DNA of 64,000 bases from Candidatus Pacearchaeota archaeon (GCA_018304025.1 JAGVXA010000008.1:2660-66659), one strand, 5' to 3'; positions 3,516 through 54,590 are shown, counted from the first letter of the stretch. Numbers and translations are program-made. Notes: generated from the sequence alone by a model not told the origin.

Positions 3516-4202
3516 TTAATTTAGCCTTATGACATAAGGACTTAATTTTGGTTTTAGATAAGGAGTTAGATCTTCTATATTTTTTACATAAATTTTGTCT
3601 TGTTCATTAATAACTGCGATTGGCGCACTTGTTATGTTATAATTTTCTTTTAGATTTATTATTAGTTCAGAGTTTAGATTATAGTCAAATGAATATATCA
3701 TTATCTTATCTGACATTTTATCTTTGAATGTTCTTAAAATAAATCCCATTCTCTCGCTTTCTTCATTTAGCGGCTCATTGTTGGAATAGAAGAAGAGTAT
3801 TGTTATGTAATCTTCGTTACACTGTTTTTTTATTTGTTTAATGATGTTGAAATGCTTTAATTCCAGCTGGGAATATAACTTTTTCTGTTCTAAAACTCTG
3901 GAATCTTTTTTTCCAAATCTTTTTTCCAATAAATCCAATTTTCCGCCAACTTCGTCCAGAATAATTGACGATTTTACCAGTATGTCTTCTCCACAATCGC
4001 TTGTAGACATGTTTAGAAGAATGTCCATATCATTCAGATATTTTGTAACTATGTTATTTTGAGAAGAGATTCTTTGATAGTTGTAATAGGAGGCTCCTGA
4101 TGAGATTAGAATTATTATTGTGAATATTGTCGTAGCAAGAATGAATGATAAAAACATTCTGAAGAGTGGGACATTTCTTTCGGGTTTCATTCTTCCCTCC
4201 AT
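3516..4202 (-). CDS. membrane-anchored hypothetical protein
   Basis: single N-terminal TM helix (FLSFILATTIFTIIILISS); start overlaps the stop of the upstream GT2 gene by 16 nt, so likely co-transcribed. Confidence 0.5.
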   Translation of the reverse strand: MEGRMKPERNVPLFRMFLSFILATTIFTIIILISSGASYYNYQRISSQNNIVTKYLNDMDILLNMSTSDCGEDILVKSSIILDEVGGKLDLLEKRFGKKDSRVLEQKKLYSQLELKHFNIIKQIKKQCNEDYITILFFYSNNEPLNEESERMGFILRTFKDKMSDKIMIYSFDYNLNSELIINLKENYNITSAPIAVINEQDKIYVKNIEDLTPYLKPKLSPYVIRLN

Positions 4203-5443
4203 ACAACTTTTTTATTGAAGACTATGTAGATCGTACTGACTATCCACCAGAAAGCAAATAAAAATGAAAAGAAAAAAGTGAACAATATAAAATTTAATCT
4301 TATACTTCCGCGGTACATCATTTTTCTTCTTGAAAAAATCATATAGAACCAAAGAAGAGCTATGAAAAGAATAGTTAAAAGAAGAAGTTTGCTACTGAGC
4401 ATTGTTAGAAGGAAGACTTCTATCATGTACGAGCTTATTTCGAATGTATTTTGAAATTGGAAATTGATCGCGTTTAATTCAAGAAGTTCTTTTTTTATTT
4501 TTGCCAGGGCTTTTATTACTACATAAATTGTTAGAGTTACGGAAAGAAAAATTGTGGAAATTGCTGTTGGCAGGACAACTGTTCCGAGCGCGCCGGTTTT
4601 CGGCCCGAAAAGACGACGATAATCCCAGAGATTCTTCATTAATCCCGTGTACCATCTTCTTCTTTGAACCATGAGCGAACGGAAAGTTCCCGGACCAATA
4701 GTATAAACCGCTGCTTCTTCTGCATTTTCTAGTCTGTAATCAAGGCTCTGAATCCTTAAAGCAACTTCCAAATCTTCTGTAATATTTTTTTCGTCGAATC
4801 CGCCGTGTTTTTCAAAGAATACTTTTCTATATGCTGAGAATGCCCCGGGGGTGATATGAATTGCATTCATGCTTGCAAAACTTTTTCTTAAAAATACGCC
4901 CATGTAATACTCTATTTGCTGGATTCTTCTCCAGATGTTTTTTGGTTCAAAGACACCCATTGCAGGAGCGACTGACATTATGTCACCTTCGGTAAAATAA
5001 CCAACCATTTTTTTTAGAGAATCCGGATGAACTATTGTGTCTGCATCCATTGTTATGATTATTTCTCCTCTTGCTTTTTTTATACCAAGATTTAGCGCAG
5101 AGCCTTTTCCGCCGTTTATATCTTTTTTGAATACTTTTACTTTTGGGTTTTGATTGGATGCAAATCTTTTTGCTATCTGATAAGAATTATCTTTACTTCC
5201 GTCATCAACTACAATTATTTCAAATTTATTTTTCGGGTAATTTATAGAAAGAGCTGACTTTATTGTTTTTGCAATGCTTTTTTCTTCGTTATACGCGGGG
5301 ATAATTATTGAAACTGTTTTGTCTGTTGCTGGCTCGGGTTTTTTCTTTTTTCTGTAGTATGTAAACAGATTGATGATGTAGAATGAGGTTGAGAATAAGC
5401 CGATGTATGCTAGGATGTAAATTAGAATTAAGTAGAAGTCCAT
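4187..5443 (-). CDS. family 2 glycosyltransferase, processive QxxRW type
   Basis: IIIPAYNEE, VVDDGSKD, TMDADT and QRRRW motifs with flanking TM helices, as in chitin/cellulose/PNAG-synthase-like GT2 enzymes. Confidence 0.8.
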   Translation of the reverse strand: MDFYLILIYILAYIGLFSTSFYIINLFTYYRKKKKPEPATDKTVSIIIPAYNEEKSIAKTIKSALSINYPKNKFEIIVVDDGSKDNSYQIAKRFASNQNPKVKVFKKDINGGKGSALNLGIKKARGEIIITMDADTIVHPDSLKKMVGYFTEGDIMSVAPAMGVFEPKNIWRRIQQIEYYMGVFLRKSFASMNAIHITPGAFSAYRKVFFEKHGGFDEKNITEDLEVALRIQSLDYRLENAEEAAVYTIGPGTFRSLMVQRRRWYTGLMKNLWDYRRLFGPKTGALGTVVLPTAISTIFLSVTLTIYVVIKALAKIKKELLELNAINFQFQNTFEISSYMIEVFLLTMLSSKLLLLTILFIALLWFYMIFSRRKMMYRGSIRLNFILFTFFFSFLFAFWWIVSTIYIVFNKKVVWREE

Positions 5444-6011: not shown

Positions 6012-6164
6012 GGAAAAATTAATTGCCTTCGGCAAATTAATTTTTTATGGAGATAATTAGCGGGAAGAAAAATTCCTGCGAAGTTAGGAGATTAATTCTT
6101 TTGGAGAAATAATTAGTGCGATAGAATCGAGAAATTAGCCTTCGGCTAATTTCCGAATATTTTT
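6012..6164 (+). repeat. composite of family B and C intergenic repeat modules
   Basis: AATTAATTGCC-TTCG-GGCAAATTAATT hairpin. Then GGAGATAATTAGCGGGAAGAAAAATTCCTGCGAAGTTAGGAGAT (module C). Then GATAGAATCGAGAAATTAGCC-TTCG-GGCTAATTTCCGAATATTTTT (module B, cUUCGg loop plus T-run). Confidence 0.75.
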
Positions 6165-6224
6165 CGTCTATAATTTTTATTTATTCTATTTGGTTAATTT
6201 TATACGAAATTAATCGGAAGGTAA

Positions 6225-8385: not shown

Positions 8386-8528
8386 GTATTCTCTTGAGGA
8401 AGTTTTTTTAAAAACCTTTCTATTTGTATAAATTACAAATGTTTTGCGGCGCAATTGTCGAACAATTCGTTATTGGGAGAAAGGTTTTTAATACCGAATA
8501 GACTGAATAAATTAAGAGGAAAAATAAA

Positions 8529-9125
8529 ATGTTTGACGAAAAAGAGGGGCTTCCTGACTTGCCGCCTTCTCAGGAGTTTTTTGGCGGTTCTGGTTTGAGA
8601 GAGTCGGATAATGAGGAAGAGGAAGAATCAGAAAGCCAGGCTTTGCCGGCGTTTCCGGATTCGCCGAGCCATAACAGATTTTCAGAGGCTGCTATCAAGG
8701 ATGCTATTCGAGGAAATGACGAAGAGAGCTTGCCTGAATTGCCAAAACTACCCGGCGAAGAACCAGAACTTCCTGAACTTGAGGAGATTCCCGGACTTGC
8801 GGAAAAAACAAAAATCGTTGAAATGGAGGAGTGGAAGCCAGAACGTCCGAACCAGGTTGAAATTTCGAGACGAGAAGATTTTGCTCCATTTAGAAAAGAG
8901 GGCGGCGCGCCGGATGTTTTCGTCAAGATAGAAAAATTCAGAACTGCGAGAAGGACTTTTAACGAAGTAAAAAGCAAGCTGGATGAAATTGATGATTTGA
9001 TAAAAAGAATAAGGGAGACGAAGATGAGAGAAGATCAGGAATTAAATTCTTGGGAAAGAGACGTGACGCAGATTAAATCAAAAGTAAGAGATGTCTCTGA
9101 AAATATTTTCGAGAAGGTAGAATGA
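8529..9125 (+). CDS. acidic proline-motif / coiled-coil hypothetical protein
   Basis: N-terminal half has repeated LP-x-LP motifs (LPDLPP, LPAFPD, LPELPKLPGEEPELPELEEIPGL); C-terminal half is predicted coiled coil. Confidence 0.5.
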   Translation: MFDEKEGLPDLPPSQEFFGGSGLRESDNEEEEESESQALPAFPDSPSHNRFSEAAIKDAIRGNDEESLPELPKLPGEEPELPELEEIPGLAEKTKIVEMEEWKPERPNQVEISRREDFAPFRKEGGAPDVFVKIEKFRTARRTFNEVKSKLDEIDDLIKRIRETKMREDQELNSWERDVTQIKSKVRDVSENIFEKVE

Positions 9126-9427
9126 ACTCTGAATATGTTGGACTGAGCCGCGATGAAAAGATTTTTGCGCAGAAAAATATGCTGAAGTCGCAACTGGATT
9201 TTTTGAGCAGTCTTAAACGACTGCAATCTTATCGAAAATTGAGAGAAGAGGAGTTTAAACTGAAGATTGATTTGAAAACTAAGATTGGAATGCTAATGGA
9301 GGACTTGAGGAAATTGGAAAAGATTTTGCCGGAAGTTGAAGACATGGAATCTGGAGGGAAGGAGAAGAAAGAAAGTTTGGAGCATGAGATTGAGGAGATA
9401 AGAAGGGAATTGGCTAAACTGATTTAG
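9122..9427 (+). CDS. small coiled-coil hypothetical protein
   Basis: 101 aa heptad-rich sequence; ATGA stop/start overlap with the preceding ORF indicates translational coupling. Confidence 0.5.
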   Translation: MNSEYVGLSRDEKIFAQKNMLKSQLDFLSSLKRLQSYRKLREEEFKLKIDLKTKIGMLMEDLRKLEKILPEVEDMESGGKEKKESLEHEIEEIRRELAKLI

Positions 9428-9494
9428 ATATGTTTCTGGCACGCACTAATTTGCGCCACGCTAAATTTATATATACTTTTCTTTTTAGATTTAC

Positions 9495-11624
9495 ATGAAG
9501 ATTAAATCCAGAAATGAACTGATAGATTTGTATATTAAATTTTTCAAAAGCAAGGCACATAGGGAAATTCCTTCGGCGTCTTTGATTCCTGAGAATGACC
9601 CGACTGTTCTTTTCACGACGGCAGGAATGCATCCTTTAGTTCCATATTTGATGGGGCAGAGACATCCCTTGGGCAAGAGACTTTGCGATGTGCAGAAATG
9701 CATTCGGACGGGAGATATTGATTCGGTTGGCGACGAAGTGCATCATACTTTTTTTGAGATGCTGGGGAATTGGTCGCTTGGAGATTATTTCAAGAAAGAA
9801 GCGATTGAATTTTCGTTTGAGTTTTTGACGTCGGAGAAATGGCTGGGAATTGATAAGAATAAATTGGCTGTTTCAGTTTTTTCAGGAGATAGAGATGCGG
9901 AGAGAGATGCGGAGAGCGCTAAAATCTGGAGAGGATTGGGGATTGCCAAGGAAAGAATTGCATATTTGCCGAAGAAAGATAATTGGTGGGGGCCTGCGGG
10001 CGAGACAGGGCCTTGCGGACCTGATACTGAAATGTTTTATTTTACTGGAGAAAAAGTTCCTGCGAAATTTGAGCCGTCGGACAGTAGATGGGTTGAAATT
10101 TGGAATGATGTTTTTATGCAATACGAGAAAAAGAAAAGAATTATTTTAGTTGATGGGATGGGATGTTTATATGATAAGGAGTTTAAGATTAATGAAACTT
10201 TGTTTGAAATTTTAGAATCTGCAAATGCCAAAAAAATATTAGTTGTTAATAACTTTAGAAAGGAGGCAGAGCAATTATTAGAGGGCAAAGGATACGGTGT
10301 GTTTTCATTTGACGGCAAAATTAAAAAAGATAATGAATTGTTCTTTAAGAAATTATTAGAAGAATATTCTCTTAATGCGGATGAAGTTATTTATTTTGAC
10401 CACGATAAGTTAAATATCGACTCTGCAAAGAGCGCAGGTATCAAAAGTGTATTTTACGACGGAAGTATTAATAAAATTGAAAAATTTATTATTGATAATA
10501 TTGGTTATTATGTTGAGCTGAAGCAGAAAAATGTTGACACTGGAATGGGCGTCGAGAGGACGCTGGCTGTTTTGAATGGCTTGTCGGATAATTATCTGGC
10601 TTCGGGACTGAAGGAGATTGTTGAAAAAATTGAAGAAATTTCCGGGAAGGATTATTTGGGGCATGAAAGAGAAATGAGAATTATTGCAGACCATGTTCGC
10701 GCTGCTGTTTTTATTCTTGGAGATGTTCGGGGAATTAAACCGAGCAATGTCGGGCAGGGCTATGTTTTACGGCGATTAATTCGGCGGGCTGTTCGATATG
10801 GCAGAATGGTTGGAATCAAAGATGAATTTTTATGCGAGTTAGCCAAAGTTGTTATTGAGATTTATGGAAAAAGTTACGACGAGATTTTTAAGAATCGGGA
10901 ATTTGTTTTGATAGAATTAAGAAAAGAGGAAGGGAAATTTGGAATTACGCTGGAGAAAGGACTGAAGAAATTTGGGAGCTTAATCAGAAAAGAGAGGAGA
11001 TTGAACGGGAGAGATGCGTTTTTGCTTTTTCAGTCGTATGGCTTTCCGATTGAGATGACTTTGGAAATGGCTCGGGAGGCGAAGAAAGAAGTTGACATTC
11101 AGGGATTTAAAGAAGAAGAGAAAAAACATCAGGAACTTTCGCGGACAGCTTCTGCCGGAGTTTTCAAATCCGGGCTGGCTGATAATTCTTTTATGACGAC
11201 GAGACTGCACACTGCAACGCATTTGCTGAACGCTGCGCTGAAGAAAGTTTTGGGGAGCACGGAGATTAAACAGAAGGGCTCGAATATAACTCCTGAAAGA
11301 TTGAGATTTGATTTTAGTTTTGGAAGGAAATTAACTGATTTGGAATTGAAAGAAATTGAGAGCTTGGTTAACAAATGGATTTCAGAGGGGATTGAAGTCC
11401 GGCGAGAGGAAATGCCTGTAAAGAAAGCTTTTGATTCTGGGGCTGAGGGCGAGTTTGGGGCGAAATATCCGTCGATAGTTTCTGTTTTTACTATTGGAAA
11501 AATCAGCAAGGAAATTTGCACGGGGCCGCATGTTCAAAATACTTCTGAGATTGGGGAATTTAAAATTTTGAAAGAGGAATCGTCGAGCGCGGGAGTTAGG
11601 AGAATTAAGGCGACGGTGAGTTAA
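9495..11624 (+). CDS. alaS: alanyl-tRNA synthetase, bacterial-type, lacking the C-Ala domain, with an internal ~125-aa insertion
   Basis: LFTTAGMHPLVPYLMG, QKCIRTGDIDSVGD, HHTFFEMLGNWSLGDYFK, VDTGMGVERT. Editing-domain HTATHLLNAAL and CTGPHV motifs. Extra segment between FMQYEKKK and VDTGMG. Confidence 0.9.
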   Translation: MKIKSRNELIDLYIKFFKSKAHREIPSASLIPENDPTVLFTTAGMHPLVPYLMGQRHPLGKRLCDVQKCIRTGDIDSVGDEVHHTFFEMLGNWSLGDYFKKEAIEFSFEFLTSEKWLGIDKNKLAVSVFSGDRDAERDAESAKIWRGLGIAKERIAYLPKKDNWWGPAGETGPCGPDTEMFYFTGEKVPAKFEPSDSRWVEIWNDVFMQYEKKKRIILVDGMGCLYDKEFKINETLFEILESANAKKILVVNNFRKEAEQLLEGKGYGVFSFDGKIKKDNELFFKKLLEEYSLNADEVIYFDHDKLNIDSAKSAGIKSVFYDGSINKIEKFIIDNIGYYVELKQKNVDTGMGVERTLAVLNGLSDNYLASGLKEIVEKIEEISGKDYLGHEREMRIIADHVRAAVFILGDVRGIKPSNVGQGYVLRRLIRRAVRYGRMVGIKDEFLCELAKVVIEIYGKSYDEIFKNREFVLIELRKEEGKFGITLEKGLKKFGSLIRKERRLNGRDAFLLFQSYGFPIEMTLEMAREAKKEVDIQGFKEEEKKHQELSRTASAGVFKSGLADNSFMTTRLHTATHLLNAALKKVLGSTEIKQKGSNITPERLRFDFSFGRKLTDLELKEIESLVNKWISEGIEVRREEMPVKKAFDSGAEGEFGAKYPSIVSVFTIGKISKEICTGPHVQNTSEIGEFKILKEESSSAGVRRIKATVS

Positions 11625-11625
11625 T

Positions 11626-11645
11626 TTTTAGTATATAAATTATAT
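11626..11645 (+). promoter_or_regulatory. conserved TATA-like head of a family A repeat
   Basis: TTTTTAGTATATAAATTATAT. Four near-identical copies (11.6, 18.3, 25.8, 54.6 kb), each ending 4-7 nt before the family A outer stem. That spacing fits an archaeal TATA box about 25 nt upstream of a transcription start. Confidence 0.4.
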
Positions 11646-11649
11646 CTTT

Positions 11650-11863
11650 GCGTGACGCATTTGGACTTGCCAATTTTTGCTGCTGGCAAGTCTCATCATT
11701 AAAATTCGCTCCGCGAATTTGCGTCACGCTAACTCGTTTCGGCACGCAATTGGACTTTTGTAAGAACCCTTCTCGGTTTCTTACCAACTTCCCCTTGCGA
11801 TACGCTCAAGGCTGGTTCGAAATTTGTTTGAAAATTCACTTCGTGAATTTTCTGTGCGCCGAA
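11650..11863 (+). repeat. family A structured repeat, two tandem units
   Basis: Unit 1 (11650-11729): GCGTGACGC / GACTTGCCA..TGGCAAGTC / AAATTCGCTCCGCGAATTT / GCGTCACGC. Unit 2 (11738-11863): TTCGGCACGC...GTGCGCCGAA with an enlarged variant first arm and AAATTCACTTCGTGAATTT. Confidence 0.75.
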
Positions 11864-11872
11864 ATGAACAAA

Positions 11873-12077
11873 GGAGATAATTATCTAGATAGAATCGAGA
11901 AATTAATCTTCGATTAATTTCCGAGTATTTTATGTTAATAATAATGAAGATTAATCTTGGGGAATAATTAGCGGGAAGAAAAATTCATGTTGGGCTGGGA
12001 GTTGTTAGTTTAGGATAAGATTAATTAAGAAATTAGGAGATAATTATTGGAAGAAAATTCCTGCGAGGTTAGGAGAT
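11873..12077 (+). repeat. family B hairpin followed by two family C modules
   Basis: GGAGATAATTATCTAGATAGAATCGAGAAATTAATCTTCGATTAATTTCCGAG, then GGGGAATAATTAGCGGGAAGAAAAATTC..., then GGAGATAATTATTGGAAGAAAATTCCTGCGAGGTTAGGAGAT. Confidence 0.7.
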
Positions 12078-12144: not shown

Positions 12145-12522
12145 ATGGTATCTTTTGTATATCCGGAAACTCTTTTGGCAGTAGTTGATTCTGAATCTGG
12201 AAGCGATATTCATTCAATAAACGAAAGACTAATCGGAAGAGTTTTAGATAAGATTAACATTTTTAGAGGATACTCTGGCCCGAGAGAAGCAGCAGCTCAT
12301 GTGTTATGCCTTGCTTTATCAAACTTTGGCGGAGTAGAAGGCTACAAAGACGAATCTCAGGTAAAGAGGGTTGTAAATAATACTTTACAATTATCAGCTT
12401 ATGGTTTTTACACAAATAGAATGCAATTTAATATTCCCGGCGATGATCGAAGTGATTGGGAACATGCTCTTGATAGATTTGCTGAAGGCTGTTTTAATTT
12501 TTATTTTGCTCCCAAGCTATGA
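12145..12522 (+). CDS. hypothetical protein
   Basis: open frame; ATG at 12145 (MVSFVYPE) preferred to the track's TTG at 12103; no recognisable domain. Confidence 0.4.
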   Translation: MVSFVYPETLLAVVDSESGSDIHSINERLIGRVLDKINIFRGYSGPREAAAHVLCLALSNFGGVEGYKDESQVKRVVNNTLQLSAYGFYTNRMQFNIPGDDRSDWEHALDRFAEGCFNFYFAPKL

Positions 12523-18262: not shown

Positions 18263-18316
18263 GATAGTTATTAGTAAATAAATTATATTTGTTTCTGGAC
18301 GCAATCGGGCTTACTA

Positions 18317-18338
18317 ATTTTTAGTATATAAATTATAT
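18317..18338 (+). promoter_or_regulatory. conserved TATA-like head of a family A repeat
   Basis: AATTTTTAGTATATAAATTATAT, identical core to the copies at 11626, 25794 and 54564. Confidence 0.4.
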
Positions 18339-18342
18339 CGCT

Positions 18343-18515
18343 GCGTGACGCATTTGGACTTGCCAATTTTTGCGACTGGCAAGTCTTATTGTTAACAGCT
18401 CACTCCGTTCGCTGGTGCGCACCGAGTAATTGCTTCGCTGACAATCGCGAGTCTTATCGGTAAAATTCGCTCCGCGAATTTGGCGACGCATCAACTCTGC
18501 GAAATTCGCGTGGCG
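18343..18515 (+). repeat. family A structured repeat, composite multi-unit copy
   Basis: GCGTGACGC, GACTTGCCA..TGGCAAGTC, palindrome GGTGCGCACC, CTTCGC..GCGAG, AAATTCGCTCCGCGAATTT, tail GACGCATCAACTCTGCGAAATTCGCG. Shares its module order with the array at 52.8 kb. Confidence 0.75.
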
Positions 18516-18592
18516 AACTAATTTTTTTGGAAGGGAATAATTATCAGAAATGTATTCGTTAAGTTTTTATAGACTATTTGGTTTTGATAACG

Positions 18593-23394: not shown

Positions 23395-23428
23395 TTTTTC
23401 TGGGGGTTTAGATAGGTTGAGATTTTTA

Positions 23429-23567
23429 GGGAGATAATTATCTGGATAGAATCGAGAAATTGTTCTTCTCGGCGCGCATTTGGACGCACAATTTTATTCG
23501 GTTGTGCGTCTTATCATTAACCAAATTCACTTCGTGAATTTGGAGAGCGCGCCGAGCAATTTCCGAG
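23429..23567 (+). repeat. family B hairpin with a family A unit nested in its loop
   Basis: GGGAGATAATTATCTGGATAGAATCGAGAAATTGTTCTTCTC [GGCGCGC..GGACGCACA..TGTGCGTC..AAATTCACTTCGTGAATTT..GCGCGCC, 23471-23553] GAGCAATTTCCGAG. Confidence 0.8.
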
Positions 23568-23676
23568 AATTTTTACTAATGATAATGACTAACTTGTGAA
23601 CAGAGCAATTTCCGAAAATCGCTGATTAACGAGATTTGTCAAGGGATTGATAATTTATGATAATGGCTGGAATGAA

Positions 23677-25793: not shown

Positions 25794-25815
25794 ATTATTA
25801 GTATATAAATTATAT
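25794..25815 (+). promoter_or_regulatory. conserved TATA-like head of a family A repeat
   Basis: ATTATTAGTATATAAATTATAT, 4 nt upstream of the outer stem that starts at 25820. Confidence 0.4.
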
Positions 25816-25819
25816 GCGT

Positions 25820-25902
25820 TTCGGCACGCAATTGGACTTGCCAATTTTAGTTGCTGGCAAGTCTTATCGGTAAAATTCGCTCCGCGAATTTAGCGTGCCG
25901 AA
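25820..25902 (+). repeat. family A structured repeat, single clean unit (archetype; candidate small RNA)
   Basis: Outer stem TTCGGCACGC/GCGTGCCGAA (10 bp). Arm 1 GGACTTGCCA-loop-TGGCAAGTCT (9 bp plus a G.T pair). Spacer TATCGGTAA. Arm 2 AAATTCG-CTCCG-CGAATTT. Followed by AAATTTT. Confidence 0.8.
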
Positions 25903-25983
25903 CTAAATTTTGTGATGATTAGAAGATTCCATTTTATTAGAAGTATTAGAAAAAATTATAAACTGACTTTTTATTGATTTGGA

Positions 25984-36464: not shown

Positions 36465-36518
36465 TTTGATAAGTTTTATTAACTTACTTTCTGATAGGGT
36501 GATATAAATAAAATTTCC

Positions 36519-36587
36519 CTGGCGCGAATTGTCGTAACAGTGCGCAATTTGTTTGAAAATTCGCGAAGCGAATTTTCTGCGCGCCAG
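36519..36587 (+). repeat. family A-related structured repeat (short subfamily) immediately upstream of aRF1
   Basis: CTGGCGCG AATTG ... AAAATTCGC-GAA-GCGAATTTT ... CGCGCCAG. Ends 8 nt before the aRF1 ATG. GATATAAATAAAA TATA-like box at 36501. Confidence 0.65.
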
Positions 36588-36595
36588 ACAATAAT

Positions 36596-38132: not shown

Positions 38133-40196
38133 ATGGAAGATGAAAAAAGAGCGCCTGATGTGAATACAGCTGTGCGACTGGCTTCGACGGGGAAGAAGCA
38201 GGATGACTTGATACTTGAGGCGAAGGGATTTTTCGACGCGCACAAAAAAGAAATAGGAAAATCAATTCGGGCGGGGGAGAATGTTGTCAGGCTGAATTTC
38301 TCGCAATTAGCTGAATTTTCTCCTGTTTTGTCCGACAACATGGTTCAGATTCCCGAGGACAGCCTGGCTATTATGGAAACTGCATTGGGAGAGCTCGGAT
38401 TAGTTGAGAATCCGCGGATTAGACTGGAGGAATTGCCGAGGACTTCTTACATTAAAGTCAGGGACATCAGAGCAAAGCACCTTGACCAGTTATTATGGAT
38501 TGACGGAATTGTTCGGCAGGCGTCGGATGTCCGCCCGCAGGTTGTCAACGCAAAATTTGAGTGCCCGAATTGCGGCGCGATTTTGTCTGTGCTGCAGATT
38601 GACAGAAAATTCAGAGAGCCGTCGAGATGCTCGTGCGGGTGGAAAAGCAATTTTAAAATTTTGTCGAAAGAAATGGTTGACGCGCAGAGACTTGTTATCG
38701 AGGAATCGCCTGATGCTTTGGAGGGTGGCGAGCAGCCGAGAAGAATTAATGTTTTTTTGAAAGAAGATTTGGTTGACCCGAAAATGGAGGGAAAGACAAC
38801 GCCGGGGAGCAGGGTTAGCATTTACGGCATTTTGAAAGAAGTTCCTGTGCCTCTTCAAACAGGAGCGATTTCGACGAGATTTGATATTGCGGTAGAGGCC
38901 AATAATGCTATTTCTGGAGAGGAGGGTTTTGAAGATTTAGATATTTCCGACGAGGATATTCGGCAGATTCAGGAGCTGGCTGTTGATCCGAATTTGTATG
39001 AGAGACTGTCGAAAAGCATTGCGCCTTCAATTTACGGTTTTGATAAAATTAAAGAAGCTGTATTGCTGCAATTGTTTGGCGGGGTGAAAAAAAAGAAATC
39101 TGATGTTGGCTTTACGAGAGGAGATATTCACGTCCTGCTTGTTGGCGATCCCGGTGTTGCGAAATCTGTTTTGCTGAAGTATATTTCGATAATTGCTCCC
39201 AAGGGAAGATATGTTTCTGGAAAAGCTGCTACTGCCGCGGGTTTGACTGCTGCTGTCGTGAAAGATGAATTTTTAAGAGGATGGTCGTTGGAAGCAGGCG
39301 CGATGGTTTTGTCTAATAAAGGAACTGTCTGCATTGATGAAATTGAAAAAATGAATGAACAGGACAGGAGCACGATGCATGAGGCGATGGAACAGCAATC
39401 TGTGACAATTTCCAAGGCAAACATCCAGGCGACTTTGCGAGCTGAAACAACTGTTCTTGCTGCGGGAAATCCGAAGCTCGGGAGATTTGATCCTTACACT
39501 CCGATTCCATCTCAAATTGATATTTCTCCTGCTTTGCTATCGAGGTTTGATGTTATTTTTATTATTCGGGATTTGCCGAACAAAGTTCAGGATGCGGCGA
39601 TTGCGACGCATGTTTTGGAAGAGCACCAGCAAGAGGTAATCAGAGATGTTGTTGAACCAAAACTTTTCAGGAAATATGTTGCTTACGCGAAACAGAAAAT
39701 AAAACCGCATTTGACTGACGAGGCTGTTGAGGAAATAAAGGAATTTTATATTCGTCTTCGAAATCAGCCGGGGCGGGCGGATTCTGAGCTGAAGCCGATT
39801 CCGATTACTGCGCGACAGTTGGAGGGAATTGTCCGATTGGCTGAAGCGCATGCGAAGATGAGACTTAGTTTAGAGGTAAATGCGCAGGATGCCAAGAAAG
39901 CTATTGAGCTGGTGAAGTTTTCTTTAATGCAGGTTGGATACGACGAGGAGACGAAGAGTTTTGACGTTGACAGGATGACTACGGGGATAACGACTTCAAA
40001 GAGGGGGAAGATTTTGCTAGTTAGGGAAGTGATTGCGCAGCTGGAAAGCAAGCTTGGGAAATTAATTCCGATGGAAGAATTAGAAAAAGCTTTGGAAGGA
40101 AAGATAACTGATATTGAAATGGAAGAAGCTTTAACGCAGTTGTCTAAGTCAGGAGATATTTTCAAGCCGAAGAAAGGATTTATTCAGAGAATTTAA
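38133..40196 (+). CDS. mcm: minichromosome maintenance (MCM) replicative helicase
   Basis: Zn motif CPNCG...CSCG, Walker A LLVGDPGVAKS, Walker B CIDEIEKM, arginine finger SRFDVIF, C-terminal winged helix. Confidence 0.92.
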   Translation: MEDEKRAPDVNTAVRLASTGKKQDDLILEAKGFFDAHKKEIGKSIRAGENVVRLNFSQLAEFSPVLSDNMVQIPEDSLAIMETALGELGLVENPRIRLEELPRTSYIKVRDIRAKHLDQLLWIDGIVRQASDVRPQVVNAKFECPNCGAILSVLQIDRKFREPSRCSCGWKSNFKILSKEMVDAQRLVIEESPDALEGGEQPRRINVFLKEDLVDPKMEGKTTPGSRVSIYGILKEVPVPLQTGAISTRFDIAVEANNAISGEEGFEDLDISDEDIRQIQELAVDPNLYERLSKSIAPSIYGFDKIKEAVLLQLFGGVKKKKSDVGFTRGDIHVLLVGDPGVAKSVLLKYISIIAPKGRYVSGKAATAAGLTAAVVKDEFLRGWSLEAGAMVLSNKGTVCIDEIEKMNEQDRSTMHEAMEQQSVTISKANIQATLRAETTVLAAGNPKLGRFDPYTPIPSQIDISPALLSRFDVIFIIRDLPNKVQDAAIATHVLEEHQQEVIRDVVEPKLFRKYVAYAKQKIKPHLTDEAVEEIKEFYIRLRNQPGRADSELKPIPITARQLEGIVRLAEAHAKMRLSLEVNAQDAKKAIELVKFSLMQVGYDEETKSFDVDRMTTGITTSKRGKILLVREVIAQLESKLGKLIPMEELEKALEGKITDIEMEEALTQLSKSGDIFKPKKGFIQRI

Positions 40197-40220: not shown

Positions 40221-41156
40221 ATGGTAAAAGAGGAGATAGACGAGATTGAGAGGAAACTGAAACAAATTGCAGAAGAGATAGTTGTGCAAGAAACCAGATT
40301 TCGCAAATTCGGTGATTTGAGCAGAAAACAGAAACTTGCGGAGATGTATGAAGAGAGGGCAAGATTGTATGAAGAACGGGCGGCGATTCTTGATTCACGA
40401 AATGCTGTCAGCATGAAAGGTTTATTCGGGAGAATTTCTAAAGATAATGATTTAGCTTCTGCGCGCTGGAATCACAACATAGCCAGAGCTTACCTTGCTG
40501 AAGTAGAAAAATTCAAGAAATTAAAAAATTCGGGAAGAGAAAAGGGGGAGTCTGACTTGGATGATGAGAAAACTTCTGTTTCGCAGAGATTACGGAATGA
40601 AATTGCTGAATTGAAAAATCAGCGCAGCCGCGTTTCAGCTAATGAGCTGGGAAGGAATTACAAGGGAAGAATTGCGGAAAGAATTGATTTGAGCACACGG
40701 CTTGGCGAGGATTATAAACAGCTGGCGGATTTAGCTGAATACGACGATTCTGCCAAGATATGGTATTCTGGCGGGGCAAATAATTTTGCGCAGGCGGGAG
40801 AAGCTGCTGAAAAAATCGGGGAGAACAGGAAGGCATCAAAGGCGTATTTGAATGCTGCGAGAATGTACAAGAAATTAGGGGACTCGGAAAAAATGCAATT
40901 TTATGTTCGCAAAGCTCGGTTCGCCCGCAAGATGGCAATTCGTGGCGGTTTGGAGAAAGTGAAAGGAATTTATCTGCTTGGCTTGCTGATTTTGTCGTTG
41001 GCATTTTTATCTCCGCGGCTCACTGGAAATGTCGTTGGGATGAGGTTATCTGGTTTTGATTATTTCGGCTTAGGATTTTTTGTTTTGTTTTTATTAGGAA
41101 TTGGGATGAAGGTTTATTTGGGGGGGCGGGGAAATGGCAAAATTAGTAAGAGATAA
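40221..41156 (+). CDS. coiled-coil protein with C-terminal TM helices
   Basis: helical heptad-rich N-terminal 240 aa, then two hydrophobic helices (IYLLGLLILSLAFL, GLGFFVLFLLGIGM). Confidence 0.45.
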   Translation: MVKEEIDEIERKLKQIAEEIVVQETRFRKFGDLSRKQKLAEMYEERARLYEERAAILDSRNAVSMKGLFGRISKDNDLASARWNHNIARAYLAEVEKFKKLKNSGREKGESDLDDEKTSVSQRLRNEIAELKNQRSRVSANELGRNYKGRIAERIDLSTRLGEDYKQLADLAEYDDSAKIWYSGGANNFAQAGEAAEKIGENRKASKAYLNAARMYKKLGDSEKMQFYVRKARFARKMAIRGGLEKVKGIYLLGLLILSLAFLSPRLTGNVVGMRLSGFDYFGLGFFVLFLLGIGMKVYLGGRGNGKISKR

Positions 41157-41505
41157 AATACCCGAGATTATTATTCGGGACGGCGGAAATCCTAAATCAA
41201 GGTTTGCCGACGATGAAGAGTTCTGGCAGAAGCTAAAAGAAAAATTAGTAGAAGAGACGAATGAATTTGTTGAGAGTGAAAATGAGGAGGAGCTTGCTGA
41301 TATTTATGAGGTTTTAGATGCTATAATAAATTTTGATTTCGGCGCGAATTGTCGTGACAATTCGAAATCTTTAGAAAATTCGCGGAGCGAATTTTCCGCG
41401 CAGAAATTAGATTTTAAGAAATTTGACAAGGCAAAAATTAATGAAATCAAGAGAAAGAAATTTAAAGAACGGGGCGGATTTGACAAGAGGATTATTCTGG
41501 AGTAG
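41134..41505 (+). CDS. MazG-like / phosphoribosyl-ATP pyrophosphohydrolase-like NTP pyrophosphatase carrying an in-frame repeat insertion
   Basis: KLVRDKIPEII, EEELADIYEVLDAI and KERGGFDKRIILE match the small all-alpha NTP-PPase family. A 22-codon segment (FGANCRDNSKSLENSRSEFSAQ) is encoded by a family A-type repeat. Confidence 0.6.
   Translation: MAKLVRDKIPEIIIRDGGNPKSRFADDEEFWQKLKEKLVEETNEFVESENEEELADIYEVLDAIINFDFGANCRDNSKSLENSRSEFSAQKLDFKKFDKAKINEIKRKKFKERGGFDKRIILE
41338..41403 (+). repeat. family A-related repeat (short subfamily) inserted in frame within a CDS
   Basis: TCGGCGCGAATTGTCGTGACAATTCGAAATCTTTAGAAAATTCGCGGAGCGAATTTTCCGCGCAG; closely matches the intergenic copy at 36519-36587. 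Confidence 0.75.
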
Positions 41506-42919: not shown

Positions 42920-43072
42920 ATGGGGAGCAAAAAAGAGGCGAATGTAAAGAAATTTTTGTTGGAGATACCGGAGGAAATCTGGACTAAGTGGAAAGACAAG
43001 GTGCCGAGGTCGATTTCGCTGAATAGGGCGCTGATTGAACTGCTTGAAAAGGAGGGAGAAGATGAAGACTGA
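42920..43072 (+). CDS. small ribbon-helix-helix (CopG/Arc-like) protein, 50 aa
   Basis: Hand-translated: MGSKKEANVKKFLLEIPEEIWTKWKDKVPRSISLNRALIELLEKEGEDED (beta strand then two helices). Overlaps the start of the giant repeat gene by 11 nt. Confidence 0.45.
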   Translation: MGSKKEANVKKFLLEIPEEIWTKWKDKVPRSISLNRALIELLEKEGEDED

Positions 43073-44744
43073 GAAGAGACTGGCAATTGAAGTTTTATTA
43101 ATTGTTTTTGTAATCGGATTTTTGTTGGTTTCTGCTTCTGCTGCTGTGCTTCTTTCGGATCAGGGAACTGATGTAAAAGACAAAACAACAGGGCAACTTC
43201 TTGAGAGCGGAAATCTGACGATAACAATTTATGATGCGGCTGCTGACGGAACCCTGATTTTCAACCTGACAACCACGAACGCGATTGCAAATGGCTCGTG
43301 GAATTTGATGATTTCAGCTAATTTGGAATTTGGGAATACTTACTGGAAGGATTACATGATTAACGGCGAGGATCTTGATTTTGACGGGAATGAGAGAATT
43401 TCTTTTCAATCTCCTCTTGGGCAGATAAACAACGCTTCGCTTATTAATTTTTCATTGATAAACAACTGCTCGGCTGGGAGTTCGATAAGAATGATTTACG
43501 CGAATGGGAGTGTTGTTTGCGAGACAGATGATTCGGGGAGCGGGAATGTAGTTAATGGCACAACATTAACAATAACGAATATAACTGACTTTTTGTATAA
43601 CTATAATACAACCTCGCTGTTCACGACTTGGCTTGCGACTTTTTATTACAATTACAATCAAACTGGGGCTGCGAATAACTATAACTACAACGAGACATTA
43701 GCTGCTAATACTTCTATCTTCACAAATTACGGGAAATGGTGGTACAACATGACGAATAATACTTGGGACTACAATCAATCGAATACACTTTATTTCTATA
43801 ATCAATCAGGAATTTATTATTATAATCAAACGGGAGCAGCAAGCAATTATAACTACAACGAGACATTAGCTGCTAATATTTCTATTGTTACTAACTACGG
43901 AAAATGGTGGTATAATCAAACAAATACACTTTACTACTACAACCAATCTGGAATTTATTACTACAACCAAACGGGAGCAGCAAGCAATTATAATTATAAT
44001 GAGACATTAGCTGCAAATATTTCTATCTTCACAAATTATGGGAAATGGTGGTATAATCAGTCAAACAACACTTGGGATTACAATCAAACTAACACATTAT
44101 ATTTCTATAATATGACGGGAGGAAATTATGGATACAACCAAACTAACACAACTTGGCTACTTTACTTTTACAATCAATCGAATACAACTTGGGACTATAA
44201 TATGACTGGGGGAAGTTATAATTACAATGAAACTCTCGCAGCCAATTTGTCTATCGTGACTAATTACGGTTTGTGGTGGTACAATATGACTGGAGGAAAT
44301 TATAACTATAATCAATCAAATGTAACCTGGCTACTTTACTTCTACAATCAAACTGGCGGAAGTTATAATTACAATGAAACTCTTGCTGCTAATATTTCTA
44401 TTGTTACTAACTACGGAAAATGGTGGTATAATATGACGGGTGGAAACTATAATTATAATCAATCGAATACAACTTGGTTATATAATCAGTCGGGAATTTA
44501 TTATTATAATCAGACAATTTATCGACGTATAACGAAACATATACGATCTGGGCATACAATCAAACGGGAGCAGCAAGCAATTATAATTACAACGAGACAC
44601 TGGCTGCAAATATTTCTATCGTTACTAATTATGGTTTGTGGTGGTACAATCAAACTAATACACTTTATTATTACAATCAATCTGGAATTTATTACTACAA
44701 TCAAACGGGAGCAGCGAGCAACTACAATTACAACGAGACATTAG
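43062..44744 (+). CDS. giant Asn/Tyr/Trp-repeat surface protein, fragment 1 (meaningful frame ends near 44516)
   Basis: ATG at 43062 with GGAGGG upstream. N-terminal hydrophobic anchor LAIEVLLIVFVIGFLLVSASA, then NYNYNETLAANxSIVTNYGKWWYNQT-type repeats. After 44516 this frame reads out-of-frame repeat sequence. Confidence 0.65.
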   Translation: MKTEKRLAIEVLLIVFVIGFLLVSASAAVLLSDQGTDVKDKTTGQLLESGNLTITIYDAAADGTLIFNLTTTNAIANGSWNLMISANLEFGNTYWKDYMINGEDLDFDGNERISFQSPLGQINNASLINFSLINNCSAGSSIRMIYANGSVVCETDDSGSGNVVNGTTLTITNITDFLYNYNTTSLFTTWLATFYYNYNQTGAANNYNYNETLAANTSIFTNYGKWWYNMTNNTWDYNQSNTLYFYNQSGIYYYNQTGAASNYNYNETLAANISIVTNYGKWWYNQTNTLYYYNQSGIYYYNQTGAASNYNYNETLAANISIFTNYGKWWYNQSNNTWDYNQTNTLYFYNMTGGNYGYNQTNTTWLLYFYNQSNTTWDYNMTGGSYNYNETLAANLSIVTNYGLWWYNMTGGNYNYNQSNVTWLLYFYNQTGGSYNYNETLAANISIVTNYGKWWYNMTGGNYNYNQSNTTWLYNQSGIYYYNQTIYRRITKHIRSGHTIKREQQAIIITTRHWLQIFLSLLIMVCGGTIKLIHFIITINLEFITTIKREQRATTITTRH

Positions 44745-45172
44745 CTGCAAATATTTCTATCGTGACTAATTACGGTTTGTGGTGGTACAACATGACCGGA
44801 GGAAATTATAACTATAATCAATCAAATGTAACTTGGCTACTTTACTTCTACAATCAAACGGGGGCAGCAAGCAATTATAATTATAATGAAACATTAGCCG
44901 CTAATTTGTCTATCGTCACAAATTACGGTTTGTGGTGGTACAATCAGACAAACACGCTTTACTATTACAATCAGTCGGGAATTTATTACTACAACCAAAC
45001 GGGAGCAGCGAGCAACTATAATTATAATGAAACATTAGCCGCTAATTTGTCTATCATCACAAATTACGGGAAATGGTGGTATAATATGACGGGTGGAAAC
45101 TATAATTATAATCAATCGAATACAACTTGGTTATATAATCAGTCGGGAATTTATTATTATAATCAGACATAA
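44510..45172 (+). CDS. giant repeat surface protein, fragment 2 (frame shifted relative to fragment 1)
   Basis: The frame opens at 44510 and reads SDNLSTYNETYTIWAYNQTGAASNYNYNETLAAN. There is no plausible start or RBS. It ends at TAA 45170-45172. Confidence 0.55.
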   Translation, partial: SDNLSTYNETYTIWAYNQTGAASNYNYNETLAANISIVTNYGLWWYNQTNTLYYYNQSGIYYYNQTGAASNYNYNETLAANISIVTNYGLWWYNMTGGNYNYNQSNVTWLLYFYNQTGAASNYNYNETLAANLSIVTNYGLWWYNQTNTLYYYNQSGIYYYNQTGAASNYNYNETLAANLSIITNYGKWWYNMTGGNYNYNQSNTTWLYNQSGIYYYNQT

Positions 45173-46781
45173 TGAGACTTACGCTGGACTGATTAACAAC
45201 GCGTCTTATTTATCGACGTATAACGAAACATATACGATCTGGGCATACAATCAAACGGGGGCTGCGAATAACTATAATTACAACGAAACTCTCGCAGCTA
45301 ATTTGTCTATTGTAACTAACTACGGGAAATGGTGGTACAACATGACGGGAGGAAATTATAACTATAATCAATCAAATGTAACTTGGCTACTTTACTTCTA
45401 CAATCAAACCGGAGCAGCGAGTAATTATAATTATAATGAAACACTAGCTGCAAATATTTCTATTGTTACTAACTATGGTTTGTGGTTCTATAATCAGACA
45501 AACACGCTTTATTATTACAACCAATCGGGAATTTATTATTATAATCAATCGGGCGCAGCAAGCAATTATAACTATAATGAAACTCTCGCAGCCAATTTGT
45601 CTATCGTTACTAACTATGGTTTATGGTTCTATAATCAGACAAACACGCTTTATTATTACAATCAATCGAATAAAACTTGGGATTACAATATGAGTAATAC
45701 ATTGTATTTCTACAATATGACGGGGGGAAGTTATTTGTACAACGAGACATTAGCTGCAAATATTTCTATTGTAACTAATTACGGAAGCTGGTGGTATAAT
45801 ATGACTGGCGGAATTAATAATTACAATCATACATTAATTGCGAATGAATCTATCGTCGCTAACTATGGTTTGTGGTTCTACAACATGTCTGACGGCGGAA
45901 GCGTAACAAACGGATCTGTGCTGTCAATCGACAACATAACTAATTTATTGTACAATTACAATCAAACAAACACGCTTTACTACTACAATCAATCTGGAAT
46001 TTATTACTACAATCAATCGAATAAAACTTGGGACTACAATCAAACTAACAATTTGTATTTCTACAACCAATCAGCAACGCTTTATTTCTACAACATGTCT
46101 GACGGCGGAAGCGTAACAAACGGATCTGTGCTGTCAATCGACAACATAACTAATTTATTGTACAATTACAACCAGACAAACACGCTTTACTACTACAACC
46201 AGTCTGGAATTTATTATTACAACCAGTCGAATAAAACTTGGGACTACAATCAAACTAACAATTTGTATTATTACAATCAGTCAGCAACGCTTTATTTCTA
46301 CAATATGACTGGCGGAAGTTATTTGTACAACGAGACATTAGCCGCTAATCTATCGATAGTTACGAACTATGGCGATTGGTGGTACAATCAAACAAACACG
46401 CTTTACTATTACAACCAGTCAGCAACGCTTTATTTCTACAATATGACTGGGGGAAGTTATTTGTACAACGAGACATTAGCAGCTAATTTGTCTATTGTAA
46501 CTAATTATGGCGATTGGTGGTACAATCAAACAAACACGCTTTACTATTACAACCAGTCAGCAACGCTTTATTTCTACAATATGACGGGGGGAAGTTATTT
46601 GTACAACGAGACATTAGCCGCAAATATTTCGATTGTTACAAATTACGGGAAATGGTGGTACAACATGACGGGCGGAATTAATAATTACAACCACACATTA
46701 ATTGCGAACGAATCTATCGTTACAAATTACGGCTTGTGGTTTTACAACATGGAGGAGATTACAACTATAATGAGACATTAG
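45093..46781 (+). CDS. giant repeat surface protein, fragment 3 (meaningful from 45171)
   Basis: From 45171 reads NETYAGLINNASYLSTYNETYTIWAYNQTGAANNYNYNE and continues the repeat array; runs out of the repeat frame near 46751. Confidence 0.55.
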   Translation: METIIIINRIQLGYIISREFIIIIRHNETYAGLINNASYLSTYNETYTIWAYNQTGAANNYNYNETLAANLSIVTNYGKWWYNMTGGNYNYNQSNVTWLLYFYNQTGAASNYNYNETLAANISIVTNYGLWFYNQTNTLYYYNQSGIYYYNQSGAASNYNYNETLAANLSIVTNYGLWFYNQTNTLYYYNQSNKTWDYNMSNTLYFYNMTGGSYLYNETLAANISIVTNYGSWWYNMTGGINNYNHTLIANESIVANYGLWFYNMSDGGSVTNGSVLSIDNITNLLYNYNQTNTLYYYNQSGIYYYNQSNKTWDYNQTNNLYFYNQSATLYFYNMSDGGSVTNGSVLSIDNITNLLYNYNQTNTLYYYNQSGIYYYNQSNKTWDYNQTNNLYYYNQSATLYFYNMTGGSYLYNETLAANLSIVTNYGDWWYNQTNTLYYYNQSATLYFYNMTGGSYLYNETLAANLSIVTNYGDWWYNQTNTLYYYNQSATLYFYNMTGGSYLYNETLAANISIVTNYGKWWYNMTGGINNYNHTLIANESIVTNYGLWFYNMEEITTIMRH

Positions 46782-47734
46782 CAACGAACGTATCGATAGT
46801 TACGAATTATGGTTTGTGGTGGTACAATCAGACAAACACGCTTTACTACTACAACCAATCTGGAATTTATTATTACAATCAATCAAACAAAACTTGGGAC
46901 TACAATCAATCTGCTACGCTGTATTTCTACAATATGACGGGAAGTAGTTACAATGAAACTCTTGCTGCCAATTTGTCTATTGTAACTAATTATGGCGATT
47001 GGTGGTACAACATGACGGGCGGAATTAATAATTACAACCACACATTAATTGCGAACGAATCTATCGTTACAAATTACGGCTTGTGGTTTTACAACATGAC
47101 TAGCTACAATCATACGTTGGCTGCTAATGAATCTATCGTTACTAACTATGGATTGTGGTTTTACAATATGACTGGAAGCAGTTACAATGAAACACTGGCA
47201 GCTAATTTGTCGATTGTAACGAATTACGGTTTGTGGTGGTATAATATGACTAGCTACAATCATACGTTGGCTGCGAATGAATCTATCGTTACTAATTATG
47301 GATTGTGGTTCTACAACATGTCTGACGGAGCGGGAGGAGATTATAATTACAATGAAACTCTTGCTGCTAATACTTCTATCGTGACAAACTACGGAAGTTG
47401 GTGGTACAATATGACAAACACGCTTTATTATTACAACCAGTCAGCAACGCTTTATTTCTATAACATGTCGTACGCAAAACCATGGAATTATAACCAGACA
47501 TCTGGCTCAATTTATTATTACAACCATTCGACTACGATTTATTATTATAACCAAACGAAAGTTCCGAATGCTGATTTGCACACGCACAATGCCTCGAATA
47601 TAACTGCGGGAACATTCAACGGGGATTATAATATCACTGCGAACTTGACATTTAACGGGAACAATGACGCTGTTGTGATGGGCGGCGCGAGGATATACTG
47701 GGACGGAAGTAAATTGGTGATAAAGGTGAGTTAA
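46736..47734 (+). CDS. giant repeat surface protein, fragment 4 with non-repeat C-terminal module
   Basis: From 46751 reads GGDYNYNETLATNVSIVTNYGLWWYN. Ends with the non-repeat LHTHNASNITAGTFNGDYNITANLTFNGNNDAVVMGGARIYWDGSKLVIKVS. Confidence 0.55.
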   Translation: MVLQHGGDYNYNETLATNVSIVTNYGLWWYNQTNTLYYYNQSGIYYYNQSNKTWDYNQSATLYFYNMTGSSYNETLAANLSIVTNYGDWWYNMTGGINNYNHTLIANESIVTNYGLWFYNMTSYNHTLAANESIVTNYGLWFYNMTGSSYNETLAANLSIVTNYGLWWYNMTSYNHTLAANESIVTNYGLWFYNMSDGAGGDYNYNETLAANTSIVTNYGSWWYNMTNTLYYYNQSATLYFYNMSYAKPWNYNQTSGSIYYYNHSTTIYYYNQTKVPNADLHTHNASNITAGTFNGDYNITANLTFNGNNDAVVMGGARIYWDGSKLVIKVS

Positions 47735-52778: not shown

Positions 52779-52798
52779 GTATTTAAAATATAATTGTT

Positions 52799-53045: not shown

Positions 53046-53068
53046 CTACACGCTGAAACTAGATTGAA

Positions 53069-54406: not shown

Positions 54407-54436
54407 TTTTTTTTGAGAAATTAATTTTTGTTAATT

Positions 54437-54499: not shown

Positions 54500-54563
54500 A
54501 TAATTCCTTTTGGCATTTTTACAGAGATATAATTAACCAATAATTTAAAAAGCCAGACTTGAC

Positions 54564-54586: not shown

Positions 54587-54590
54587 GCGT

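Follow-up and report, generated by a model that had tools for sequence, protein, structure and literature searches.

We favour, with moderate confidence, the reading that family A, a repeat found in the intergenic spacers of the DNA presented above, is a selfish palindromic DNA repeat, non-autonomous and belonging to a lineage of Pacearchaeota (DPANN), and not a small-RNA gene. Its fold, covariation, polarity with GC skew, nesting, decay, lineage restriction and site polymorphism were all observed here, and it is on these observations that the reading is built. An earlier interpretation made from the sequence alone (the sequence-only reading) had proposed a candidate small RNA or a REP/MITE-like element; the REP/MITE-like part of that proposal is the better fit, and we consider the small-RNA part unlikely.

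Results

The window and the sequence sets examined

The window, by which we mean the whole 64,000-nucleotide stretch of DNA that was analyzed, encodes MCM, eRF1, aIF2-beta, an ATP-dependent DNA ligase, TFIIE-alpha, archaeal-type pilus ATPases, and several aminoacyl-tRNA synthetases. The nearest named homologues of its proteins come from Candidatus Pacearchaeota, in agreement with the DPANN host that had been guessed, and Rifle aquifer groundwater contigs carry genes identical to those of the window, the longest of these contigs being a 135.5-kb scaffold. The G+C content is 38%, and the GC skew is about +0.2 along the full length, remaining positive even across a block of minus-strand genes at 2.9–8.4 kb. 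By a rough count, about two thirds of the genes lie on the plus strand.

Family A copies beyond the window were obtained from ten contigs found in a metagenome pattern scan and from relatives reached via AlaRS and eRF1 homologues (these contigs are designated by L numbers). The metagenome scan returned 14 loci, among which the one in L135 is a chance match in a coding region. A pattern scan of IMG/VR gave one match, which was judged to be due to chance, and nothing genuine, and our literature searches found no description of the repeat. The 19-nt arm-2 palindrome was also tried as a marker of family A in genome contigs and rejected as unspecific, as 114 of 114 loci matched the palindrome alone.

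Two further features of the window were recorded. A tRNA gene at 55225–55555 on the plus strand (5′ half GTCTCGGTAGCTCAGTTGGCAGAGCACATGGCT..., 3′ half ...CCATGGGGTCGGAGGTTCGAGTCCTCCCCGAGACG) is interrupted in or beside the anticodon loop by a group I intron (Rfam, 83 bits; 55284–55511), to our knowledge an unusual situation in an archaeal tRNA; ARAGORN, for its part, detected no tRNA in the window. Downstream, the tRNA 3′ end is repeated twice more (~55583–55615 and 55676–55700), and these duplicated ends suggest past integrations. The second feature, at 43035–47734, is a very long, highly repetitive coding region with Y/N/Q/S/T-rich repeats of 46–70 aa and many direct-repeat families. The mechanical ORF list breaks it up into several ORFs; these are either paralogues or pieces of a single giant surface protein disrupted by assembly or frameshift problems.

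Family A folds into a three-way junction with invariant joints

The canonical family A unit (25820–25902) has the arrangement TTCGGCACGC-AATTG-GACTTGCC(loop)GGCAAGTC-TTATCGGTA-AAATTCGC-TCC-GCGAATTT-A-GCGTGCCGAA, in which a 10-bp outer stem (P1) encloses two hairpins (P2 and P3, corresponding to arms 1 and 2 of the sequence-only reading) connected by the joiners AATTG and TTATCGGTA. RNAfold of 25820–25902 gave precisely the outer stem and two hairpins that had been proposed (−39.2 kcal/mol), and minimum-free-energy folding of clean copies likewise gave P1 enclosing P2 and P3. The unit is thus a three-way junction of ~85 nt, and its junction sequences AATTGGA and TCTTATC are invariant across the family. 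In most outermost units, an AT-rich head with the consensus TTTTTAGTATATAAATTATAT, which contains the 13-bp TATA-like palindrome ATATAA-A-TTATAT, stands at a fixed distance of 8–10 nt upstream of P1, and most of these units also carry a CTAA(CTYG) tail, so that the full element (head, three-way junction, and tail) measures ~125 nt. The repeats lie far outside chance expectation, given that the arm-2 palindrome has 17 matches in the window against 0.05 expected and a longer gapped family A pattern has 6 against 0 expected.

Some other readings of the unit were considered and rejected. K-turn, hammerhead, and bulge-helix-bulge readings of the junctions did not fit the consensus when checked by eye, and a leaderless mini-ORF starting from the TTG of AATTGGA was discarded because its frame differs between copies.

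We used seven clean copies as the seed of a covariance model (R2), which was run on the window with filters off. It found 11 full units on the plus strand (at 11648, 18341, 18413, 23467, 25819, 36517, 41337, 52796, 52929, 54590, and 56835), whereas its minus-strand matches were weaker mirror images of plus-strand loci; a twelfth unit, at 11736–11868, was visible to it through arm 2 only. Family A occupies nine loci in the 64 kb, all intergenic, and amounts to ~2% of this housekeeping region. The copies and the remnant are as follows.

8447–8475, plus strand: remnant TTTTGCGGCGC-AATTG-TCGAA-CAATTCG; the relative L140 has a full unit at the same site.
11625–11732, plus strand: head and canonical unit with another outer stem (GCGTGACGC/GCGTCACGC), beginning immediately after the AlaRS stop codon; 84.4 bits.
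11736–11868, plus strand: second tandem unit, its P2 replaced by a ~60-nt module (GTAAGAACCCTTCTCGGTTTCTTAC...) that is found again in L127 and L131; R2 matches P3 only.
18263–18313, plus strand: truncated copy with head, P1 5′ arm, and J12 only; repeat family D19.
18318–18520, plus strand: head and composite of two or three nested units; R2 matches at 18341 and 18413.
23467–23558, plus strand: unit within the hairpin loop of a family B repeat (23424–23580); supported by folding and R2.
25796–25818, plus strand: AT-rich head of the canonical unit, TTATTAGTATATAAATTATATGCG, containing the 13-bp palindrome as a TATA-like box.
25819–25904, plus strand: canonical unit, the best R2 match (105.5 bits); P1 25820–29 with 25893–902, J12 AATTG, P2, J23 TTATCGGTA, and P3 AAATTCGC-TCC-GCGAATTT.
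36495–36590, plus strand: short variant with P2 = AATTG...CAATT and the P3 loop inverted to GAA, placed downstream of the ancestral eRF1 TATA box and upstream of the eRF1 start codon; supported by folding and R2.
41337–41407, plus strand: short variant with P3 loop GGA, overlapping a mechanical ORF (41134–41505) that itself has no family match; supported by folding and R2.
52776–53060, plus strand: head and three-level nested composite, whose innermost clean unit (52929–53007) has CTT/CTC flanks and lies inside the P3 loop of a host unit; supported by folding and R2.
54568–54667, plus strand: head and unit with a short P2 (GATTTTGC-TTC-GCAAAATC), ending 10 nt upstream of the start of a KH-domain gene; supported by folding and R2.
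56835–56925, plus strand: decayed copy with the 5′ outer arm mostly deleted and the 3′ halves of two host arms left.

R2 therefore recovered 9/9 of the loci listed in the sequence-only reading, all on the plus strand as stated there, and the stem variants quoted in it are present in the copies. Other parts of that description needed amendment. Besides clean units, there are several loci at which two to four units are combined by nesting or in tandem; the arm-2 loop is as described except at 36.5 and 41.3 kb, where it is inverted (GAA/GGA and not TTC/TCC); and the 56.8-kb copy is present but has lost most of its 5′ outer arm.

Stem pairing is maintained by two-sided changes

Across 39 distinct family A copies from the window and related contigs, in an alignment that was fitted to the covariance model, 96% of the stem cells were paired, and 21 of the 25 stem pairs showed changes on both sides (177 cells). 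None of 500 shuffles reached the observed pairing or covariation, and slid-partner controls gave pairing of only 30–50%, bearing out the compensatory changes that had been read from the window. One-sided stem changes were rare beside two-sided ones, and 8/10 pairs of P1 covaried. Because the 39-copy alignment was fitted to the model, we added an independent test in which the pairing of an arm with its own partner was compared with its pairing with the arm of other copies. Taking in 13 distinct P1 and 9 distinct P2 arm sequences, this test gave 9.4 versus 7.1 of 10 for P1 and 4.85 versus 2.65 of 5 for P2.

Strong covariation in all three helices, together with the invariant junctions, speaks for a family of structured non-coding RNAs, either small RNAs or cis leaders or trailers, transcribed from the plus strand and bound by protein at the invariant junctions. 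We consider such a family unlikely, and the composition of the stems is one reason. The conserved G·T noted earlier at the foot of arm 1 is indeed present (G·T in 34 copies and A–T in 5), and this P2-foot pair, which forms on the plus strand only and is replaced by A–T only, counts in favor of RNA; plus-strand-only pairing is, however, equally true for single-stranded DNA. Outside this one pair, the stems show no wobble excess, which argues against RNA: among 895 stem cells, 842 (~94%) were Watson–Crick, 16 were G·T, 18 were A·C, and 19 were other combinations.

The P3 loops also argue against RNA in that they are inverted in place (TTC/TCC versus GAA/GGA) at 36.5 and 41.3 kb, the orientation of the flanks being unchanged, and the same inversion was seen between two strains at one site. 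A single template-switching event can bring about several compensatory changes as well as loop inversions (PMC8794818). Both the compensatory changes and the loop inversions of family A may therefore have arisen at the DNA level, and the in-place inversion of the P3 loop is, on our analysis, a template-switch signature. The Rfam search that had been suggested as a check for a small RNA gave no match at gathering thresholds, nor at E values up to 1, for three loci. Together with the promoter geometry described below, the Watson–Crick stems, the loop inversion, and the Rfam result make four tests that speak against the fold acting as RNA, which it probably does not.

Orientation follows GC skew and not the neighboring genes

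All family A and family B loci in the window and 13 other contigs (37/37) lie on the G-rich strand. The contigs are arbitrarily oriented, and the orientation of the elements flips with the sign of the skew, in keeping with the uniform orientation, whatever the direction of neighboring genes, that was noted in the window. Flanking ORFs, as crudely called by a mechanical procedure, were co-oriented with the element in 48 of 65 cases and opposed in 17, which is near the two-thirds base rate of plus-strand genes. In addition, copies occur within minus-strand gene clusters (a family B copy at 6.1 kb; a family A copy between SpoIIM and rhomboid in L140). Co-orientation at the base rate and copies within minus-strand clusters indicate that orientation tracks the cause of the skew and not the neighboring genes; copies in minus-strand operons are antisense to local transcription, a further point against an RNA family. 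If the skew reflects replication, as we assume for this organism, we infer that it is the lagging-strand template that folds. Both excision and insertion of IS200/IS605 elements take place on this template, which gives them a genomic orientation bias (PMC5027513). Strict replication polarity is thus expected from single-strand transposition of the IS200/IS605 type, and it is no argument against mobility.

Absolute polarity with GC skew, comparable with that of architecture-imparting polar sequences, would also suit a host-serving, replication-polar DNA element whose copies are homogenized by gene conversion, as would pairing maintained in situ and the lack of a visible transposase. The loci, moreover, are fairly regularly spaced at roughly one per 7 kb; this density, being far above that of any known small-RNA family, counts against an RNA. 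We nevertheless think a host-serving element quite improbable, as syntenic relatives lack family A, copies decay and are truncated, copy structure is highly irregular, and some insertions are awkwardly placed, as when one parts an essential leaderless gene from its promoter.

The head scores better as a promoter facing away from the structure

Most window genes look leaderless, with a sharp TTTATAAA box at −29 to −22 of the ATG accompanied by an A at −32 and a C at −21; a minority have GGAGG-type leaders (e.g. 24407, 56457(−), and 60247(−)). We built a promoter profile from 29 of the leaderless genes of the window and scored the family A heads on it. Real promoters had a median of 7.9 bits in leave-one-out scoring, and the heads had a median of 5.0 bits in the reverse direction (away from the structure) versus 1.6 bits in the forward direction (into the structure). 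The reverse direction scored better in 20 of the 22 heads scored both ways, the best copies reaching 8.2–9.8 bits, and the head at 25796–25818 scored 8.6 bits reverse and 5.3 bits forward. Read in the forward direction, the head predicts a start at the A of AATTGG in J12, just past the 5′ arm of P1. Because this start lies 3′ of the P1 5′ arm, a transcript from the head promoter could not form P1.

An RNA family draws support from the TATA-like motif before most units and from the units that abut the eRF1 and KH-domain start codons, which must belong to or drive those mRNAs. Against this stand the better reverse scores of the heads, the position of the forward start, and the lack of a consistent terminator after the unit. 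A reverse-facing head promoter driving divergent neighbors was also considered and rejected, as the predicted starts do not match the start codons of those neighbors.

Units are nested, truncated, and combined with other modules

In nested copies, a complete unit with the termini TTGATGCGTCGC...GCGACGCATCAA lies in the P3 loop of a host unit (L127; 52.9 kb in the window). The junction, with CTC/CTC or CTT/CTC flanks, is common to six nests. The presence of CTY on both sides of a nest could mean that 3 bp were duplicated, or equally that a target lies opposite an element end resembling it. The outermost units have no flanking duplication beside P1 and no clear target rule, and their head and tail sequences are asymmetric.

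Seen from the inner units, which have perfect 12-bp inverted termini and a flanking 3-nt CTY direct repeat (perfect in 3/6 nests and one base off in the other 3), family A could be taken for a classical cut-and-paste MITE, with the P1 arms as terminal inverted repeats and a DDE transposase making 3-bp staggered cuts. This is very doubtful in our view. A DDE element would have no reason to adopt the same orientation relative to GC skew at every locus and would need neither covarying internal hairpins nor invariant internal junctions; the lack of a duplication next to P1 in the asymmetric outermost units also tells against it, and no DDE transposase was seen in the ORFs examined.

In L127, the inner and host units often have the same locus-specific P2. 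This sharing counts against our preferred reading, as local duplication or gene conversion accounts for it better than the arrival of a copy from elsewhere, and it points to local duplication in addition to transposition. L131 has a tandem duplication of a 65-nt 5′ half, the matching 3′ halves being absent, and metagenome contigs of several assemblies end within the element (L008 and L010). That copies are truncated, half-duplicated, nested, and decayed weighs against an RNA family as well.

A second repeat, family B, consists of GGAGATAATTA-nnnn-GATAGAATCGAGAAATT-hairpin(CTTCG loop)-AATTTCCGAG followed by a T run, and it was found in the window at the following positions.

849–924, plus (G-rich) strand: family B repeat.
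6095–6171, plus (G-rich) strand: family B repeat.
11865–11938, plus (G-rich) strand: family B repeat.
23424–23580, plus (G-rich) strand: family B repeat.
54430–54505, plus (G-rich) strand: family B repeat.

One of these copies lies inside a minus-strand gene cluster and is still on the plus strand. Family B is also present in L127, L129, and L131 and absent in more distant relatives. The B[A] composite of 23.47 kb, in which a family A unit sits within a family B repeat, occurs again at two other genomic loci, in L129 and L131. The ~60-nt module CTTTTGTAAGAACCCTTCTCGGTTTCTTACCAACTTCCCCTTGCRATACGYTCAAGGCTG stands in place of P2 at 11755–11815 in the window, at 14545–14610 in L127, and at 4990–5050 in L131; from these sequences, the module looks like a third mobile or modular component.

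L131 also contains a pair of GAPDH genes (3960–4940 and 9046–10026) that are 94% identical and 5 kb apart, each adjoining a family A or B[A] repeat. All-against-all BLASTP of the ORFs revealed no repeated transposase, the sole duplicate being GAPDH.

Family A is lineage restricted, and its sites are polymorphic

The syntenic contigs L139, L142, L146, and L147 (22, 14, 5, and 14 kb; ~55 kb) contain no family A or B copies. These element-free relatives have AlaRS proteins 71–72% identical (L139 and L142) or eRF1 proteins 77–85% identical (L146 and L147) to those of the window. The absence of family A from relatives below ~85% eRF1 identity is another point against an RNA family. The closest relative (95% identity in eRF1, 94% in ScpB, and 75% in AlaRS) carries units in the SpoIIM/rhomboid gap, in the spacer that separates TFIIE-alpha from the gene after it, and upstream of MCM; at these sites the window shows no unit or just a remnant. 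Insertion sites differ both ways, the window too having units where the closest relative has none. This pattern speaks for recent spread within one lineage.

The unit upstream of eRF1 is present in the window and L145 and absent in L146 and L147. In L146 (85% eRF1 identity), a TATA box is situated ~25 nt from the ATG, and L147 (77%) has a different, element-free upstream region. From this comparison, it follows that the element inserted, bringing its own head with it, so as to separate an essential leaderless gene from its promoter; the filled and empty sites are too diverged to show a duplication. The orthologous eRF1 copies differ by a paired change at the end of P1 (C–G to T–A) and two more in P3, and also by an inverted loop and an additional hairpin, with pairing kept. 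Retention of pairing at an orthologous site in two species favors an RNA family and could equally reflect selection on function at that site. In two strains with an identical AlaRS protein, the entire P2 and P3 differ at one site. To judge from the sequences compared, orthologous copies have come to differ by the swapping of modules and by templated changes and not through slow point substitution.

Several other differences between the relatives were observed. The MCM of the closest relative (L145 2411–5044, 877 aa) contains an intein, as indicated by an Intein_splicing match, and the window MCM (38133–40196, 687 aa) is without an intein. AlaRS is followed directly by a tRNA-binding-domain gene in L140 and L142, and a ~14-kb block (pilus/T2SS-like genes, a KaiC-like ATPase, and a VWA protein) lies between the two genes in the window and L139. 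In the window, this block is bounded by the family A copies at 11.6 and 25.8 kb, and the repeats may mark or mediate its rearrangement. In L139 (a 72% relative), three copies of another repeat, ATGGTAAAATCA, with variable tails, follow AlaRS at 12190–12350; the repeat family found in a given spacer may differ from one related lineage to another.

Discussion

The sequence-only reading took the covariation and the polarity of family A as signs that pointed to RNA and away from a mobile element. Our results do not bear this inference out, as Watson–Crick stems, the promoter geometry, nesting and decay, and polymorphic insertion sites all speak against it. Single-stranded DNA folding, the class of enzyme involved, and coupling to replication are the parts of our explanation that we infer. 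The plus strand, as the G-rich strand and putative lagging-strand template, would fold when single-stranded at the replication fork, and a structure-specific enzyme encoded elsewhere in the genome would recognize the fold and its invariant junctions. The likeliest candidate for this enzyme would be an HUH/Y1-type transposase or a RAYT-like protein; no transposase, RAYT, TnpB, or other recombinase was found among the ORFs of the window and ten ORFs of other contigs (~150 kb), and this is the principal weakness of the reading. The enzyme would insert the element, by copying or moving it, in intergenic DNA as well as in the exposed loops of copies already there, and only fold-competent copies would propagate, giving rise to subfamilies that differ by paired changes. 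After insertion, template switching and gene conversion between copies would keep the palindromes perfect and would swap or invert them. The AT-rich head could serve as an outward or bidirectional promoter, and a copy that has come between a gene and its former promoter, as in the case of eRF1, would have to supply or tolerate expression.

A bolder proposal is that family A forms the cis part of an undescribed archaeal system built on folded single strands, a prospect to which we give only a small chance. This could take the form of a hairpin-junction transposon, with a predicted enzyme that recognizes a three-way DNA junction and targets hairpin loops, or of a functional replication-polar RNA or DNA element that a streamlined DPANN genome keeps at about one per 7 kb and that also distributes promoters; the small chance applies to the two forms jointly.

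The genomes of DPANN archaea are very small and generally considered poor in selfish DNA. If the single-strand model that we favor is true, REP/IS200-like hairpin biology extends to Pacearchaeota, and family A is a natural case of strong, textbook-looking covariation without RNA. Under the same model, the repeat would provide a ready marker of replication direction for genomes that are hard to close, and contig breaks and local rearrangements in these metagenome assemblies would be explained. Elements lying between promoters and leaderless essential genes raise the question of how expression is kept.

Among known systems, the REP/BIME (REPIN) repeats with their RAYT (TnpA-REP) proteins share with family A the character of short, abundant intergenic palindromes with covarying stems and a constant flanking tag (PMC3333891). 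Recognition is thought to be by an HUH enzyme acting on the single-stranded hairpin, and the repeats influence neighboring transcripts. REPs resemble the hairpin ends of IS200/IS605 elements and are handled by related Y1 enzymes (PMC3333891). REPs are, however, bacterial simple hairpins of 20–40 nt with a GTAG or CGTC tag, usually arranged as inverted pairs, whereas family A is an archaeal three-way junction of ~85 nt with an AT-rich head in one orientation, and no RAYT was seen in ~150 kb. There is no GTAG or CGTC tag at the P1 of family A, and all copies are direct.

The PATEs of Haloquadratum are non-autonomous derivatives of IS200/IS605. Elements of the IS200/IS605 type, which are common in archaea, resemble family A in their strand-specific activity on the “top strand,” their recognition of hairpins, and their orientation bias relative to the lagging-strand template (PMC5027513). 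They differ from it in having separate left-end and right-end hairpins and in inserting 3′ of a fixed tetra- or pentanucleotide; in family A, one closed junction is the whole element, and TnpA and TnpB were not found in ~150 kb. That REPs and IS200/IS605 ends are simple hairpins, unlike the three-way junction of family A, counts against our preferred reading.

Pneumococcal BOX and Neisseria Correia elements are transcribed repeats that are built from variable numbers of modules, fold stably, lie between genes, and can create or carry promoters. Family A is similarly modular, stably folding, intergenic, and promoter-like. BOX and Correia elements are bacterial, lack strict replication polarity, and have another architecture; Correia elements, in addition, are marked by TA duplications and contain an IHF site that is known. 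Integron attC sites are likewise folded one-strand recombination sites, with variable stems, conserved unpaired bases, and strand specificity. In family A, however, the R and L boxes (GTTRRRY) are absent, with no R″/R′ boxes (RYYYAAC/GTTRRRY) at the P1 ends, and there are no cassette arrays and no integrase; the repeats separate housekeeping genes, with AlaRS, eRF1, and MCM among their neighbors. The two systems nearest to our preferred reading thus remain REP/RAYT and IS200/IS605, and family A differs from both by its junction, palindromic head, single orientation, nesting in its own loops, and DPANN host.
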